Virus record (IMG/VR): IMGVR_UViG_3300023180_000023
From: an uncultured virus (IMG/VR IMGVR_UViG_3300023180_000023)
Taxonomy: Duplodnaviria > Heunggongvirae > Uroviricota > Caudoviricetes
DNA length: 64,000 bases
Direction: 5' to 3' (one strand)
Shown here: positions 5,938 through 27,768 of the stretch, piece by piece
How the letters are laid out: each line of letters starts with the position of its first letter
Position numbering within the stretch: the stretch's first letter is position 1
Notes under the pieces: model-generated
Database searches by the model: none
What the model saw: the letters and a program-made list of their open reading frames with translations, nothing else
Told to the model about the DNA's origin: nothing
Translations under genes and position numbers: made by a program

Positions 5938-6009
5938 AGCGGGTGATCGGAATCGAACCGACGACATCTAACTTGGAAGGATAGCGTTCTACCGCTGAAC
6001 TACACCCGC
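5938..6009 (-). tRNA. tRNA-Gly(TCC)
   Basis: GCGGGTGTAGTTCAGCGGTAGAACGCTATCCTTCCAAGTTAG...GGTTCGATTCC; no encoded CCA. Confidence 0.95.
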
Positions 6010-6039
6010 AGGAAAGGGGGTGGTCAGACCCCCAAGGAC

Positions 6040-6255
6040 ACATGCACGCCACCTGTTTTAGTTTCAGTTGCAAAACAGGAAATCAACCACACGGAAGGGG
6101 TCGTTTGGATCCACCACTTGCTCTTTGACTGGAAGCAAGAAACCAGGCGGGGAGAGATATCCCATCCGCACCACTTGTTCTTATGGAAAAACAAGAAACC
6201 CGAGGGGTCGTTAAACCCATCCCGACCAGGGCGCTTTTAGCGTCATCCCGAGACG
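6040..6255 (-). ncRNA. Large structured RNA with three repeated hairpin modules, manA-like
   Basis: Three TTTC(T/C)TG-hairpin-CA(A/G)GTGG(T/C)G units; GC-rich, no credible ORF, next to a tRNA. Family assignment from memory. Confidence 0.65.
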
Positions 6256-6261
6256 TTTCAT

Positions 6262-6489
6262 TTAGGCATAAACACCAGATTCAATAAGATCTGCTTCAAC
6301 CTGATCGAGAATTACATTATAATCATCTTCAGGATCATCGTACAATTGTACTCCTTGGTCTTCATAGAAACGAATAAGTTTCTGATAAAGTTTAGGGTAA
6401 TCTTCATCAAGGGAAATATTACCCTCGATTGCTGCAGTCAGTTTTTTGAGATCGTTTTTGAACTTTGAATGAAATTTAGAACGAGACAT
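6262..6489 (-). CDS. Hypothetical protein
   Basis: ORF track. Confidence 0.7.
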   Translation of the reverse strand: MSRSKFHSKFKNDLKKLTAAIEGNISLDEDYPKLYQKLIRFYEDQGVQLYDDPEDDYNVILDQVEADLIESGVYA

Positions 6490-6532
6490 TGCCTTTGCAA
6501 TTTAGTTGTAGGAATGGAGGGGGAACCTCCAA

Positions 6533-6606
6533 TCGGGACGACAGGATTCGAACCTGCGACATCTCGCTCCCAAAGCGAGTGCTCTACCAAACTGAGCTAC
6601 GTCCCG
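6533..6606 (-). tRNA. tRNA-Pro(TGG)
   Basis: CGGGACGTAGCTCAGTTTGGTAGAGCACTCGCTTTGGGAGCGAG...GGTTCGAATCC. Confidence 0.95.
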
Positions 6607-6620
6607 TTGTTGATGCAAGT

Positions 6621-6649
6621 ATTATACTGGATAATACTTGCGGTGTCAA
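6621..6649 (-). promoter_or_regulatory. Consensus sigma70 promoter TTGACA-17-TATAAT for tRNA-Pro and downstream RNAs
   Basis: Perfect hexamers with a 17-nt spacer, 14 nt upstream of the tRNA. Confidence 0.85.
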
Positions 6650-6653
6650 GAGG

Positions 6654-6836
6654 TCAGCTGAAAAATTCTTCGTTCCGCCTGCGATCCAAGTACTCAATGA
6701 TCTCACCACGCCATTCTAGCAGTTCGTGGTAGCACTCCTGTTCGTGTGCAGTTTGACGCAGTTCATGATCTGGTTTGAGAACACTCTCATAGAAAATAAA
6801 AAATGCGTCTTTGCGTTTGGTTTGTTTAGGATTCAT
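6654..6836 (-). CDS. Hypothetical protein
   Basis: ORF track, coupled to neighbour. Confidence 0.7.
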   Translation of the reverse strand: MNPKQTKRKDAFFIFYESVLKPDHELRQTAHEQECYHELLEWRGEIIEYLDRRRNEEFFS

Positions 6837-7081
6837 CTTTCCTCGAAATCAAGTTTGCGGACACGTCGTTTCCTCCGTGCCTCCTGGTATTCTAACTCTT
6901 GATTTGAGAAAACACTTCCTTTCTTAAGGATTTCTTCTGAATTAATCATGATAACCTGAGCGAGGTCCACTGCCGTAATTTTATCTTCGGTTACTGTTGT
7001 TTGATTTGGGCATCCACATATCTGTGGTCTCGTACTGCTGGTCAATTCCTTATTGCAACACTTGCATCTGACTGATAGCAT
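6833..7081 (-). CDS. Hypothetical Cys-containing (zinc-ribbon-like) protein
   Basis: CKCC...CGCPN. Confidence 0.7.
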   Translation of the reverse strand: MLSVRCKCCNKELTSSTRPQICGCPNQTTVTEDKITAVDLAQVIMINSEEILKKGSVFSNQELEYQEARRKRRVRKLDFEER

Positions 7082-7121
7082 AATTTAACATTCCTTTATC
7101 TTTCAAGTTCCTATTCTTCAT

Positions 7122-7352
7122 TTATTTATTTGGGTTATGGTCTTTCATACCATCGTGATTACCGTCCTTTGGAAGTTCACCCAAAGTAATATACTTAACA
7201 ACCTGAATAGATCCTTCAAGTCGAGCAATACTCCTTTCGCACTTTATATACTCTTCATAAGCAGGTCGAAGTTCTTCCAACTTACCCTGAAGTTCTATTG
7301 TTCTTTTAGTAAATCTTTGTAGAAGTTGTTCGTTAGATTCTATTGGTTTCAT
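7122..7352 (-). CDS. Hypothetical coiled-coil protein
   Basis: ORF track. Confidence 0.6.
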   Translation of the reverse strand: MKPIESNEQLLQRFTKRTIELQGKLEELRPAYEEYIKCERSIARLEGSIQVVKYITLGELPKDGNHDGMKDHNPNK

Positions 7353-7370
7353 TTCTTTAGTTGTAACTAA

Positions 7371-7442
7371 TGGGCGAAGAGGGATTCGAACCCCCGACTG
7401 CCTCGGTGTAAACGAGGAACTCTACCGCTGAGTTATTCGCCC
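7371..7442 (-). tRNA. tRNA-Val(TAC)
   Basis: GGGCGAATAACTCAGCGGTAGAGTTCCTCGTTTACACCGAGG...GGTTCGAATCC. Confidence 0.95.
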
Positions 7443-7519
7443 TGGCGTCTCAGGAGGGACTTGAACCCCCGACCAACTGCTTAGAAGGCAGATGCTCTAT
7501 CCAACTGAGCTACTGAGAC
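7443..7519 (-). tRNA. tRNA-Arg(TCT), CCA encoded
   Basis: GTCTCAGTAGCTCAGTTGGATAGAGCATCTGCCTTCTAAGCAG...TGAGACGCCA. Confidence 0.95.
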
Positions 7520-23914: not shown

Positions 23915-24312
23915 TATGCACTTTCAATAGGGGTTTCAGTAACTTCTGGAATTTCTGGGGCAGCAGGTTGATTCTGAGCAACTTCCTCATCAAGAGCAAT
24001 GTTGTTCTTTGCACAATAATCACGCAGGATATTATCATGCGGATCATAAATCGTAACTAACCAATCTGCAGGGATGATAAATGAACGCTGCTTAGAAAGA
24101 GGTGCCCAATGAGTATACCGAACAGAATACTTTGTACGTGGTGCATCTTCACCTTCTACCTGAAGTTCATCAGATTCTTCAGCGGTGAGTTGCATCACAA
24201 ATGGATTTGAAAGATGATAGGCAACGATACCTTTATTTTCAGTGTCCAAAATTTCTCTGGCGTCGGAGATAACATCCTCGCCAGATTTCAACAGCATAAC
24301 TTTAACGGTCAT
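23914..24312 (-). CDS. Hypothetical Sm-like-fold protein
   Basis: VKVMLLKSGEDVIS...NPF...WAPLS...DWLVTIYDP. Confidence 0.75.
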   Translation of the reverse strand: MTVKVMLLKSGEDVISDAREILDTENKGIVAYHLSNPFVMQLTAEESDELQVEGEDAPRTKYSVRYTHWAPLSKQRSFIIPADWLVTIYDPHDNILRDYCAKNNIALDEEVAQNQPAAPEIPEVTETPIESA

Positions 24313-25016
24313 AGCGATAACTTAGTGTCTTCTAAATGTCTAATGTGGTTTGAAAGTTTGTCAAGGTATCCACGATTGCGTAACTCTTTGAATACAAGAT
24401 TCTCAAGTGCAAACTCTCCACCTTGTTGAATGGCAGACGCCCTCATATCACGAATTCTTTTTTGAAGTTTTCTAAGAACATCAGCATCATTTGCATCGCT
24501 CTCAATGAGGTCGTCAATCTTTGCCATCATATCACGAACCTTGCGAATAAGCAAGGGGTCTGCAAGGTCAACCTTGACTTTGTTTGGTGCCATCAACCAT
24601 TTGTCTTGAGTGAGTGAATACACACCCTGGTTAGCAGGCAGTGGATCACTCTCATCTTGAGCATACAACTCAACTGGATGAGAGTAGATCTTAATGTCGT
24701 GGACAAGTGCCCACAATTTCTTTTTATCTCTTAGATAATCATCTAAGAGTTCTGGACAGTCAGCAATCTGACTCTTATCAACAACCAAATGAAGATCAAG
24801 ATCAGAGAATCTGGTGTAATTATAGTTAGCGTTACCACCAACCAGAATCATATCCTTTACAGCAGTAGCAGGAATCTTAGCAAACTCCGCCCACTTAGTT
24901 CCAATTTGTAAAAGTTTATCCTTTACTTCAGGTCTGAGTCCACCTTCATCCCAAAACTTAATATTCAATTTGTTGTGGTACATCAGGGTTAACCTGAGAG
25001 ATTGGAACGTTTTCAC
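24309..25016 (-). CDS. Pol-beta superfamily nucleotidyltransferase
   Basis: ILVGGNANYNYTRFSDLDLHLV (hG[GS]x9-13DhD) plus third carboxylate in VELYAQD. Confidence 0.8.
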   Translation of the reverse strand: MKTFQSLRLTLMYHNKLNIKFWDEGGLRPEVKDKLLQIGTKWAEFAKIPATAVKDMILVGGNANYNYTRFSDLDLHLVVDKSQIADCPELLDDYLRDKKKLWALVHDIKIYSHPVELYAQDESDPLPANQGVYSLTQDKWLMAPNKVKVDLADPLLIRKVRDMMAKIDDLIESDANDADVLRKLQKRIRDMRASAIQQGGEFALENLVFKELRNRGYLDKLSNHIRHLEDTKLSL

Positions 25017-25037: not shown

Positions 25038-25403
25038 TTATTTATCTTCTTCAGTTTCAGTCATCACTGTTTCTTCAGGTTGTGTCATCTTTACAAAACT
25101 CTCGACAATACTCATCATAGGATCTGAGATAGAGATAACCCAATCTGGATTTACTGCAATTTGATTATCAGGAGTAAAAGGATTCCAACGAGAAAGAAGA
25201 ATTTTATACTGACCTTTGATACTTTGCCTTGCTTCAGGATCGTCAATATCAAATTCAAGTTCAGAACCTTCAAGAGGTTCGATCTTTACGCAATAAGGAT
25301 TGTTAAAAACAAACGCCTGCCTGCGTTGTTGATCGTCAACTGCTTCTTGCAATTCAGTCACAACATATTCCCCAGATTTAAGGGATACAATTTTTACCGC
25401 CAT
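25038..25403 (-). CDS. Hypothetical Sm-like-fold protein
   Basis: VKIVSLKSGEYVVT...NPY...WNPFT...DWVISISDP. Confidence 0.75.
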   Translation of the reverse strand: MAVKIVSLKSGEYVVTELQEAVDDQQRRQAFVFNNPYCVKIEPLEGSELEFDIDDPEARQSIKGQYKILLSRWNPFTPDNQIAVNPDWVISISDPMMSIVESFVKMTQPEETVMTETEEDK

Positions 25404-25426: not shown

Positions 25427-25460
25427 ATTATAAAAGGGTCTCAACCATTTGTCAAGACCC
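25427..25460 (-). promoter_or_regulatory. sigma70 promoter TTGACA-17-TATAAT embedded in the hsp20 terminator
   Basis: GGGTCTTGACaaatgGTTGAGACCC-TTTTATAAT. Confidence 0.8.
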
Positions 25461-25470
25461 TTAACATTAT

Positions 25471-25917
25471 TTATTGAATCTCATAAACCTTTCGCTTCTG
25501 GTGCTCAGGTACGATTCTATTCAATTCAATAATCAACATACCATTCTCAAATTTAACTTCTCCGACTTCTACATCGTCAGATAAGTTGAATCCTCTAGCG
25601 AAGGTGCGAGTCGCAACCCCACGGTGCATGTACTCACCGTCTCCTTTATCCTTCGCTGCCTTGGACGAGATGATTAGAACATTGGTTTCGGTGCTGACTT
25701 CAATGTCATCTTTTGACCATCCCGCAAGTGCTAGTTCGATCCTCCACTTTGTCTCTGAATCTTTTACCAGATTATAAGGGGGATACGAATTCTGTGGTGT
25801 ACCCATTCCATACGAATGAAGTCGATAGAAAAGGTCATCGTAACCGACACTGAATCTTTCTACAGCATCGACAATGGCACCCAAATCTTTGGTGCCGAAC
25901 TTTCTAAGTCCAGTCAT
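25471..25917 (-). CDS. hsp20: Small heat shock protein
   Basis: YPPYNL, ELALAG, YMHRGVATRTF, NGMLII, PEHQK. Confidence 0.95.
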   Translation of the reverse strand: MTGLRKFGTKDLGAIVDAVERFSVGYDDLFYRLHSYGMGTPQNSYPPYNLVKDSETKWRIELALAGWSKDDIEVSTETNVLIISSKAAKDKGDGEYMHRGVATRTFARGFNLSDDVEVGEVKFENGMLIIELNRIVPEHQKRKVYEIQ

Positions 25918-25970
25918 TATGGTAGCTCCTTTAAAAGCGAGTTTGTGTTTTGAGGACCCCGAAGGCATCC
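25918..25970 (-). promoter_or_regulatory. hsp20 leader, ROSE-like RNA thermometer candidate
   Basis: CUUCGG hairpin, then CUCGCUUUUAAAGGAG pairing UCGCU with the SD. Confidence 0.55.
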
Positions 25971-25991
25971 ATAGTATATATTACTCAATAC

Positions 25992-26070
25992 AAAAATAGT
26001 GGCACAGTAATAACCGTACCACTATGTAGGGTGTTCCGACTTTCGTAGAGACCGCACGAAAGGTCTCAGA
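25992..26070 (-). ncRNA. Candidate late small RNA with H-type pseudoknot and terminator
   Basis: ATAAATA 26079-26073; GAGACC-TTTCGTGC-GGTCTC-T-ACGAAA; 13-bp hairpin plus TTTT. Confidence 0.55.
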
Positions 26071-26114
26071 GTTATTTATGCCTAAATAATTTTAGTTGAT
26101 ACAAAGACCAAAAA

Positions 26115-26612
26115 ATGAAAAAAGCATTATTTGCTTTTGGAATGTTATTGATGACCGCAGGTGCAGCAAATGCTGGCGGACTTGTTACTAAACACGCTTC
26201 CAGTGTTCAACTGACTGTTGATGCTGCAAGATCTACTGCAACCAGAGTTGGTAACTCCTACGCCATTTCTGGTGTTGGTATTGATACTATGTCTGGCACT
26301 GATGCAGATGTTGTTTCTACTGGTTCTATTACCAGTGGCATCTATTCTCCTGGCACGATTGAAGCAACCCAACAAACTGCTGGCAACTCATTCTCTTTTA
26401 GCACATCCTTCACAGAAGGTGATGCAGTCCCAACCAGTGCTGCAACTACGGGAGCAATCCCTAACTTCTCCAATGTAACTTCTTACAGTGCTGGAACTGC
26501 TGGTTCTCTAGCTGGTACTGTTGGCACTACTGGTGCTGTTACGGTTACTGCTGGTGGAGCTGGTACATCTGCTACAGGACAATTTGTATCTGAGATTACT
26601 GTAATCGACTAA
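26115..26612 (+). CDS. Secreted Gly/Thr/Ser-rich hypothetical protein
   Basis: Signal peptide MKKALFAFGMLLMTAGAANA; CTAAATA upstream. Confidence 0.8.
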   Translation: MKKALFAFGMLLMTAGAANAGGLVTKHASSVQLTVDAARSTATRVGNSYAISGVGIDTMSGTDADVVSTGSITSGIYSPGTIEATQQTAGNSFSFSTSFTEGDAVPTSAATTGAIPNFSNVTSYSAGTAGSLAGTVGTTGAVTVTAGGAGTSATGQFVSEITVID

Positions 26613-27049
26613 TGGATAGATTACAAGAAGCAATCGGTCTCGGGTTGGTTCTTGGTGCATTACATGGGACTGTCGCACAGGCAGTCCCAGTGGTCCCAAA
26701 CTTTACCCAGGGAAGTATGACTAGTCATACAGAGACAACAACAAAAGTAACAGAAACTATTAACTCAATGGATTATAGCACAGGGTATCAATACTCTGTG
26801 ACTGGTTCAGGAGTATCAGCAAGTGGGAACCTGTCCCCTGGAACAGGAACTAACAATGTAACTATAGACGGAGTGACTTCATCATGGACAGGAGTAACAA
26901 GCAAACCAACATTCACACAGACAACACCAGGAGCAGCGTTTCAGTTCACAGAAACATATCAAGGTCCTGGTTTAAGCAATCAAACGATAATTCAAAGAAC
27001 CACAGAAATTCAAAGCGTCACAGACACTACAAGTATCTTCTCGCAGTAG
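26612..27049 (+). CDS. Secreted Thr-rich hypothetical protein
   Basis: Signal-like N-terminus ending AQA; TAATG coupling. Confidence 0.8.
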   Translation: MDRLQEAIGLGLVLGALHGTVAQAVPVVPNFTQGSMTSHTETTTKVTETINSMDYSTGYQYSVTGSGVSASGNLSPGTGTNNVTIDGVTSSWTGVTSKPTFTQTTPGAAFQFTETYQGPGLSNQTIIQRTTEIQSVTDTTSIFSQ

Positions 27050-27768
27050 GACTTAATTGTGTATTCCCGTCTCAAGCATTCGCTGAGGTTGGTGGCGTTA
27101 GTGCTACCGCTGCTCCTGTTGCTAACTCTTCAGGTAGTGTTACTAATCAAGCAATACAAGTTTTACAAGGTCCGTACATCACAAACACTTACGGTGGTGG
27201 GGTCCAGTGTCAGGGACCAACTAGAAACTTCACACCTTATGTAACAGGTTCTGCCTCGGCAACTAAACCTTATGAACCATATTATTGGGATCCTGTTTAT
27301 GATATGCGGGATCTCGATGAGGATGGTGCTCCTGATAATCCTGGTTCTATTCTTTACACTGTTCCTGTAAGGACTGGACAGAAAGATAATTACAACCTGG
27401 GTGTAGGGTTCTCTATGACATGGAGCACACCTACAGATAAGAAGTTACAAGCACTGTGTAAGGAAGCAGCAACAGCACAAATTGAATTAAATAAACAACT
27501 CACTGCTAACAAGAGATTAGATTTTGAGATTGCCCGACTAAAAAACTGCGGGGAATTGATGAAACAAGGTATCATGTTTCATCCAAAATCACCATACTTT
27601 AAAGTATGTGCCGATGTCGTAGTAAACAACCCACCTGGACATCAGCATCCACACGTTCATAAGATCAACGTTTCTTCTTCCTCGGAAAAACAGAACGTAA
27701 CTCACGAACAGCATAATTCATCTGCCGCTGCTCTGCTCGGCGCTCCCCTACAGACAGGACAGGAATAG
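26884..27768 (+). CDS. Hypothetical exported protein (start ambiguous)
   Basis: Signal-like KYLLAVGLNCVFPSQAFA lies about 50 aa into the ORF; four Cys in the mature part. Confidence 0.75.
   Translation: MDRSNKQTNIHTDNTRSSVSVHRNISRSWFKQSNDNSKNHRNSKRHRHYKYLLAVGLNCVFPSQAFAEVGGVSATAAPVANSSGSVTNQAIQVLQGPYITNTYGGGVQCQGPTRNFTPYVTGSASATKPYEPYYWDPVYDMRDLDEDGAPDNPGSILYTVPVRTGQKDNYNLGVGFSMTWSTPTDKKLQALCKEAATAQIELNKQLTANKRLDFEIARLKNCGELMKQGIMFHPKSPYFKVCADVVVNNPPGHQHPHVHKINVSSSSEKQNVTHEQHNSSAAALLGAPLQTGQE

Follow-up and report, generated by a model that had tools for sequence, protein, structure and literature searches.

A predicted small RNA of T4-like cyanophages with complementarity to the helix 71 region of host 23S rRNA

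Organization of the element and its surroundings

The window analysed here is a stretch of 64,000 nucleotides from the 117-kb record of an uncultured virus (IMG/VR IMGVR_UViG_3300023180_000023), which carries T4-like cyanophage genes, namely psbA, DNA polymerase, regA and hsp20. The element under study lies between hsp20, which is on the minus strand and probably starts at 25917, and a plus-strand cassette of unknown function that begins at 26115. Read on the minus strand from 26079 to 25992, it consists of a late-promoter motif followed by a hairpin, a short tail and a terminator (Table 1). A preliminary description of this DNA had located the motif letters, the terminator, its T4 run and a divergent CTAAATA correctly, and its statement that the unit is free of ORFs agrees with our finding that no ORF of at least 40 aa overlaps the core (26079-26026) in the window. 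The complete 77-nt unit folds better than all of 200 shuffled sequences (z -5.2) and the core with only the first terminator bases folds no better than shuffles (z -0.5), indicating that the folding energy comes from the terminator. Matches were found in 19 metatranscriptomic runs, all as assembled contigs and in small shares; in four runs contigs cover the element, though assembled contigs cannot resolve a discrete transcript.

Table 1. Features of the element and its immediate flanks
Feature	Position	Strand	Basis or remark
T4-type late promoter motif ATAAATA	26073..26079	-	motif read from sequence
Predicted small RNA, ~76 nt	25992..26068	-	5' end inferred from the distance to the promoter motif; 3' end placed at the T run
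Hairpin P1, GAGACC/GGTCTC, invariant loop TTCGTGC	26048..26067	-	covariation; loop kept in matches to a loop-free pattern
P1 arms GAGACC and GGTCTC; loop TTTCGTGC	26067-26062 and 26053-26048; loop 26061-26054	-	
Antisense block 1, 12 nt	26052..26063	-	complement of host 23S rRNA 1962-1973 (E. coli numbering)
Variable A-rich linker, 4-11 nt in relatives	26041..26047	-	contains non-conserved ACGAAA (26046-26041)
Segment GTCGGAACACCC	26040-26029	-	block 2 and tail
Antisense block 2, GTCGGAAC	26033..26040	-	complement of 23S 1954-1961
Tail ACCC	26029..26032	-	predicted pairing with 23S 1948-1951, A1952-A1953 bulged
Intrinsic terminator, 13 pairs (26025-25996) and T run (T4)	25992..26025	-	sequence varies freely among relatives
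Divergent late promoter motif CTAAATA	26082..26088	+	belongs to the neighbouring cassette (phrog_564, phrog_650, phrog_848), not to the RNA
hsp20 leader, weak ROSE_3 likeness	25912..25974	-	22.5 bits against a gathering score of 43; outside the RNA

CTAAATA is the sole plus-strand match among the 34 MTAAATA motifs of the window, and the cassette at 26115-27768 (phrog_564, phrog_650 and phrog_848) is the only one on the plus strand with a late box; there is an overlap of about 165 nt between its second and third ORFs. The preliminary description assigned this motif to the cassette, to which it belongs; in Syn9 the same phrog_564/phrog_650/phrog_848 arrangement lies upstream of hsp20 without the RNA. 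Several further features were noted nearby. Leaders resembling the hsp20 leader of the window also occur in relatives. The minus strand encodes a phrog_36119 protein between hsp20 and DNA polymerase (24309-25016), with its own ATAAATA at 25039-25045, and the gene at its place in DSL-LC03 is annotated as a nucleotidyltransferase-domain protein. A perfect sigma-70 consensus promoter (12/12) at 25427-25455 (minus strand) has its -35 box inside the hairpin after hsp20, and a wcaG RNA (6103-6203, minus strand, 86 bits) lies in the vicinity of four tRNA genes, for Gly, Pro, Val and Arg (5938-7519).

Distribution and genomic context

BLAST searches recovered the element from 234 and 230 phage records, all named cyanophages or marine viruses, at one place per record (230 places in 230 records; one match each in all five records of a second check). 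A pattern scan of viral contigs yields an estimate of about 1,700 stretches, a figure that includes chance matches. The core set was built by requiring the promoter motif at the right distance, which dropped 18 of 324 matches and left 132 unique cores; 97 non-redundant cores and the window make up the alignment. A metagenome set was collected with a pattern specifying neither promoter nor tail nor terminator, and 105 of its 116 loci were unique with enough flank. TAAATA or TATATA precedes the antisense block by 8-11 nt in 102 of these 105 copies (exactly 9 nt in 85), and 104 have a terminator-like hairpin; the three without a late promoter motif are of the host type (see below). Our model R1 gives one strong match in each of the seven known carriers; its match in P-SSM4 is weak but true, and it finds nothing in Syn9, S-PM2, P-SSM2, P-HM1, S-SSM7, HTVC008M or T4. 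Loose patterns returned four matches from phages lacking an R1 match, which is the control level. S-SCSM2R has, besides its main R1 match, a weak second one, and there is a weak match in a host; both were rejected, being devoid of the antisense blocks. As the RNA was not found in Syn9, S-PM2, P-SSM2, P-HM1 and S-SSM7, it is dispensable.

Upstream of the copies lie the ends of regA, of DUF680 genes and of others that, judging by their C-termini, include psbA, psbD, gp32-like and gp18-like genes; hsp20, nrdC or unrelated genes follow. Most begin at or just after the stop codon and use the terminator of that gene. The corresponding gaps in Syn9, S-PM2, P-HM1 and P-SSM2 keep the terminator and lack the core, and empty sites also retain the downstream gene. 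The unit that moves is thus a 45-nt core with its putative promoter, the terminator being borrowed, and it is found at several unrelated genomic sites. This movement as promoter and core, together with the promoter spacing and terminators of the metagenome copies, supports the earlier proposal of an independent late small RNA, whose length is here predicted as about 76 nt. The accompanying suggestion that it attenuates hsp20 finds no support: many copies precede other genes and hsp20 retains a promoter-like motif of its own in phages without the core. The terminator loop of many copies contains TTGAC, and RN05-S and S-SCSM2R have an extra long AT-rich inverted repeat between terminator and hsp20 leader.

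Neither the element in the window nor the host copies nor the P-SSM4 copy is matched by any family of Rfam 15 at gathering and E-value thresholds, a scan that the preliminary description had proposed. The literature covered, which does not extend to the PMC10690425 alignments or the PMC5737381 supplement where the family could be listed, contains no description of this RNA or of a phage RNA pairing with 23S rRNA. An exact-sequence search of the literature gave no paper with the element's sequence, and terms from this sequence are absent from the readable parts of the supplement tables of PMC10690425, PMC7368042 and PMC5069720. Taken together, these observations indicate that the small-RNA unit is real, widespread and uncatalogued, its transcript being a prediction from sequence. 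A search for partner genes took as queries 708 plus-strand ORFs of at least 45 aa from two carriers; among 129 ORFs common to four carriers, none is missing from at least four of five non-carriers, and hence no phage gene was seen to track with the RNA.

Conservation within the RNA

The stem P1 covaries, with 96% and 94% of cells paired and 20 double-sided changes at one pair. Invariant columns of the alignment fall exclusively in the promoter, in two of the P1 pairs and in the antisense blocks. A pattern that leaves the loop free still finds TTCGTGC in 110 of its 111 matches; one that leaves the downstream part free has 120 matches, comprising 66 with the strict block, 14 judged by eye to be members with CGGAA at another spacing, and 40 that look like chance. 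As patterns leaving one block free still returned it, the fixed loop and CGGAA block are not merely an effect of the pattern. Terminator sequences differ completely between relatives, and by eye no antiterminator is common to all of them. In the P-SSM4 variant P1 is refolded and the 7-nt loop is lost, with pairing to 23S rRNA kept at 1964-1973 (one G-U) and 1954-1959; its CGU triplet, displayed in the loop in the main family, is predicted to be buried in a stem.

The preliminary description had read the loop and the downstream ACGAAA as an H-type pseudoknot and had named covariation as the means of checking it. P1 does show compensatory changes; the second stem turned out not to be conserved: ACGAAA is present in only 24 of the 132 unique cores, and the central C-G pair of the pseudoknot is broken in 65 of 96 sequences with the loop unchanged. 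In addition, such a fold would leave a linker of 1 nt to bridge a stem of 6 bp. The loop could instead pair with the tail as UUUCG/CGGAA, which 96% of cells allow; this alternative never covaries and is therefore uninformative, and it mirrors a self-complementarity of the 23S target itself.

Complementarity to host 23S rRNA

The preliminary description missed the complementarity of the element to 23S rRNA. Against host 23S rRNA, block 1 forms 12 of 12 Watson-Crick pairs (1962-1973) and block 2 forms 8 of 8 (1954-1961), and the two are contiguous on the target, split at 1961/1962 on the helix 71 side. In mature ribosomes the target region is folded and lies at the subunit interface. Block 2 is also the exact complement of 1954-1961, and the loop that of 1964-1970, in E. 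coli rrlH. The 38 cyanobacterial 23S loci compared, one of them confirmed as LSU rRNA, are identical over 1930-1973, and a 17-nt target pattern occurs in 156 of 251 sampled genomes of the picocyanobacterial family, where lack of a match in an incomplete genome does not mean absence. As the target is invariant in hosts, two-sided covariation with it cannot be seen.

Among the copies, which are related by descent, it is the pairing positions that stay invariant. Watson-Crick pairs are kept opposite 1969-1964 and 1959-1955 in all 131 cores examined and opposite 1970, 1962 and 1960 in 130 of them, with the linker varying freely; mismatches to the host fall opposite 1963 (11 cores), 1961 (19), 1971 (24) and 1954 (29). 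The two-block cover of 20 nt compares with at most 16 in 1,000 shuffles and is the best of 6,092 tiles of the window. It is likewise the best of 958 stretches following TAAATA in six phages, but the runner-up, a chance-looking Syn9 stretch, scores 19, and this single-sequence statistic is therefore modest on its own. Shuffled motif pairs match 23S rRNA in 15-203 of 20,000 trials. The predicted gain on co-folding is -16.9 kcal/mol, in energies that ignore the folded state of the target, and the predicted duplex of 20-24 bp averages -38 kcal/mol.

The tails provide evidence independent of the data from which the 23S idea was formed. The tails CACCC (67 cores), ACCC (28) and CTTAC (11) can pair to 1948-1951 or 1950-1953 with different bulges and appear to be three different ways of keeping the pairing towards 1948; 14 of the 17 distinct tails are among the best 10% of all 1,024 for extension of the pairing. 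A pattern of both blocks plus a fully perfect tail matches 0 viral contigs. Against the 3-kb stretch preceding host 23S rRNA the longest antisense block is 9 nt, and no contiguous target was found in the phage's own genome.

The bipartite match to the 23S helix 71 region is the strongest signal in these data. Since its invariant bases exactly complement an important part of the rRNA, the RNA likely acts through 23S pairing, and we regard pairing with host 23S rRNA, as predicted from this complementarity, as quite likely. With conserved bases complementary to a conserved target, its own predicted promoter and terminator, no ORF and independence of neighbouring genes, the unit shares these sequence-level features with trans-acting base-pairing small RNAs.

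Related copies in host genomes

The core without the late promoter was detected, by R1 together with a pattern, in 19 of 401 host-family genomes, with 21 matches against 2 for a reversed control. All of these genomes are 1.4-1.9 Mb in size, and some copies lie on chromosome-scale contigs. The host copies share a common locus with small ORFs and keep a bulged P1 and the terminator; one shows a change that preserves pairing with 23S rRNA as G-U. The Cyano-1 (Yfr2) RNA was found near 6 of 11 host loci tested. Ahead of the host copy lie a TGTGAAC motif, which is conserved, and a GGAGTAGA..TAAATCAAG motif, which is repeated, and one host-family genome has three copies, two of them identically flanked. 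The presence of a host copy suggests exchange between phage and cell. The Yfr106-108 probes of the PMC7368042 supplement do not match the host copies. The Yfr108 probe given there has a block-2-like stretch and no loop block, and might be a partial 23S complement.

Proposed mechanism and alternative explanations

We propose that the late sigma factor transcribes the RNA of approximately 76 nt, whose hairpin loop UUCGUGC would first kiss 23S 1964-1970, after which the free tail GUCGGAAC would invade the 3' strand of helix 71 (1954-1961) and extend to 1948-1951. P1 may then stay closed, leaving C1962-C1963 unpaired between two duplexes; alternatively P1 might open, in which case the linker would loop out and 20 pairs would form without a break. 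Displacement of the 1945-1950 strand would make it and the bases preceding it single-stranded, so that the RNase E site next to it, at 1942, would likely be exposed. Subunit joining or late maturation would then fail, the subunits would be kept out of use and decay would begin, freeing nucleotides and phosphate for phage DNA. A cyanophage pertinent to the RNase E step is a podovirus. This phage can raise host RNase E (PMC9692554). In E. coli, 23S decay is initiated by RNase E cleavage after residue 1942 (PMC4931109); the cut is not known from cyanobacteria. Decay of rRNA affects mainly free subunits and starts near helix 71 (PMC4179960), and helix 71 is without density, being unformed, in immature 50S particles of B. 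subtilis (PMC5041480). Because helix 71 is unformed in immature 50S, decay strikes mainly free subunits and RNase E cuts at 1942, we favour turnover: a late antisense RNA predicted to catch free or immature 50S subunits, open helix 71 and lead to their degradation, to which we assign a probability of roughly 0.45. Given pairing, an inhibitory outcome seems somewhat favoured. The broader proposition of an RNA-guided control of 50S fate through the helix 70-71 core (by turnover, storage or C1962 modification), common to T4-like cyanophages and one host lineage, is in our estimation fairly probable.

The turnover reading is ahead of its competitors, which in descending order are a shielding or chaperoning role, a protein decoy and a modification guide. 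All evidence for complementarity applies equally if the same pairing is helpful, either as a transient folding chaperone on 1948-1973 in late 50S maturation or by shielding or storing subunits against host nucleases, so that ribosomes are kept for late protein synthesis. Late infection needs high translation, and the finding that 19 of 401 host-family genomes have conserved copies, some near the Cyano-1 (Yfr2) RNA, fits poorly with a purely hostile role. Releasing a duplex of 20-24 bp with a mean of -38 kcal/mol would, however, be difficult unless a helicase took part, no phage gene was seen to track with the RNA, and the strand beside the known cut is displaced while the cut itself is not covered; on balance a helpful role seems rather unlikely. 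We consider it improbable that the RNA instead guides a modification or cut at C1962/C1963, the former being the E. coli m5C1962 position. Here a closed P1 would let two duplexes flank two unpaired target bases, a geometry resembling the H/ACA pocket and in keeping with the 11 of 131 cores in which the base opposite 1963 follows P1 and not the target, but the antisense blocks are not accompanied by any conserved box motif, none of the 129 carrier ORFs compared with five non-carriers co-occurs with the RNA, and the P-SSM4 variant alters the pocket.

Other explanations dispense with the rRNA. That most copies begin at or just after a stop codon and borrow that gene's terminator would suit a cis element, namely a 3' UTR module tethering or stabilising a highly expressed upstream mRNA (regA, DUF680, psbA, psbD, gp32-like and gp18-like ends) or a site acting at the DNA level; yet in the window the upstream gene points away and the unit is nevertheless intact, the spacing of the promoter motif is fixed, and G-U pairs in P1 favour RNA over DNA, making this highly improbable. 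The loop might alternatively bind a protein as a decoy, for instance as a mimic of the tRNA-Thr anticodon arm like the E. coli thrS operator, with the 23S match being coincidental. The thrS leader hairpin (PMC9976931) is very similar and has the same six loop letters, UUCGUG, and the Yfr108 probe (PMC7368042 supplement) holds a short block-2-like motif. A decoy would leave unexplained block 2, its adjacency to block 1 on 23S rRNA and the three tail solutions, and CGU is predicted to be buried in the P-SSM4 stem, so that we view it as unlikely. Least probable is the intramolecular pseudoknot of the preliminary description, acting as a type III antitoxin mimic or a ligand-sensing hsp20 attenuator: the UUUCG/CGGAA alternative could form in 96% of cells but never covaries, the pairing originally proposed is broken in most relatives, and the RNA has no Rfam match, no array (a single copy per record) and no fixed downstream gene.

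Bacterial and phage small RNAs pair with mRNAs, and guides or chaperones that pair with rRNA are known from eukaryotes and archaea. If the pairing holds, this would be a new kind of phage and host RNA; otherwise it is a new orphan RNA family. A widespread phage RNA directed against the 23S rRNA core at the subunit interface would give these very abundant ocean viruses a new way of taking over the host, and it bears on how cyanophages in nutrient-poor water handle host ribosomes, the largest store of nucleotides and phosphate. Among cultured phage-host pairs, the RNA is present in those of Syn1, Syn33, S-RIM8 and P-SSM4 and absent from those of Syn9 and S-PM2, and each base of the predicted duplex is specified.

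Comparison with known systems

By its sequence the RNA falls outside Rfam families and outside the H/ACA and type III antitoxin families. Type III antitoxin RNAs (ToxI, AbiQ) are of similar size, whereas the phage RNA has no conserved pseudoknot, repeat array or Rfam match. Riboswitches and attenuators have a fixed place before related genes, which is absent here, hsp20, nrdC or unrelated genes following the unit. A closer resemblance is to loop-presenting antisense small RNAs such as CopA/CopT and RNA I/RNA II, which share the short length, own promoter, loop seed with a single-stranded tail and intrinsic terminator. Those RNAs target an mRNA or a primer RNA, whereas the predicted target here is the 23S functional core, and, unlike in that type, a looped-out linker divides the antisense region into two parts. 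With H/ACA guides and rRNA-chaperone snoRNAs it shares a late-maturing target and two guide segments predicted to flank one rRNA site; H/ACA and C/D guides belong to eukaryotes and archaea, whereas the present RNA is found in phages and bacteria, has no ACA, H, C or D box, and no partner gene was found.

Domain 2 of the E. coli thrS operator, a mimic of the tRNA-Thr anticodon arm, has a near-identical hairpin with the loop letters UUCGUG (PMC9976931). Unlike that operator, the phage RNA stands alone, has an extra invariant block and no second anticodon-like domain, and has lost the loop in P-SSM4. Finally, the wcaG, manA and PhotoRC-II motifs (PMC2864571) and the S-PM2 cfrI RNA (PMC5931967) are likewise structured non-coding elements of T4-like cyanophages; they are gene leaders or cis-antisense RNAs, unlike the small RNA described here.
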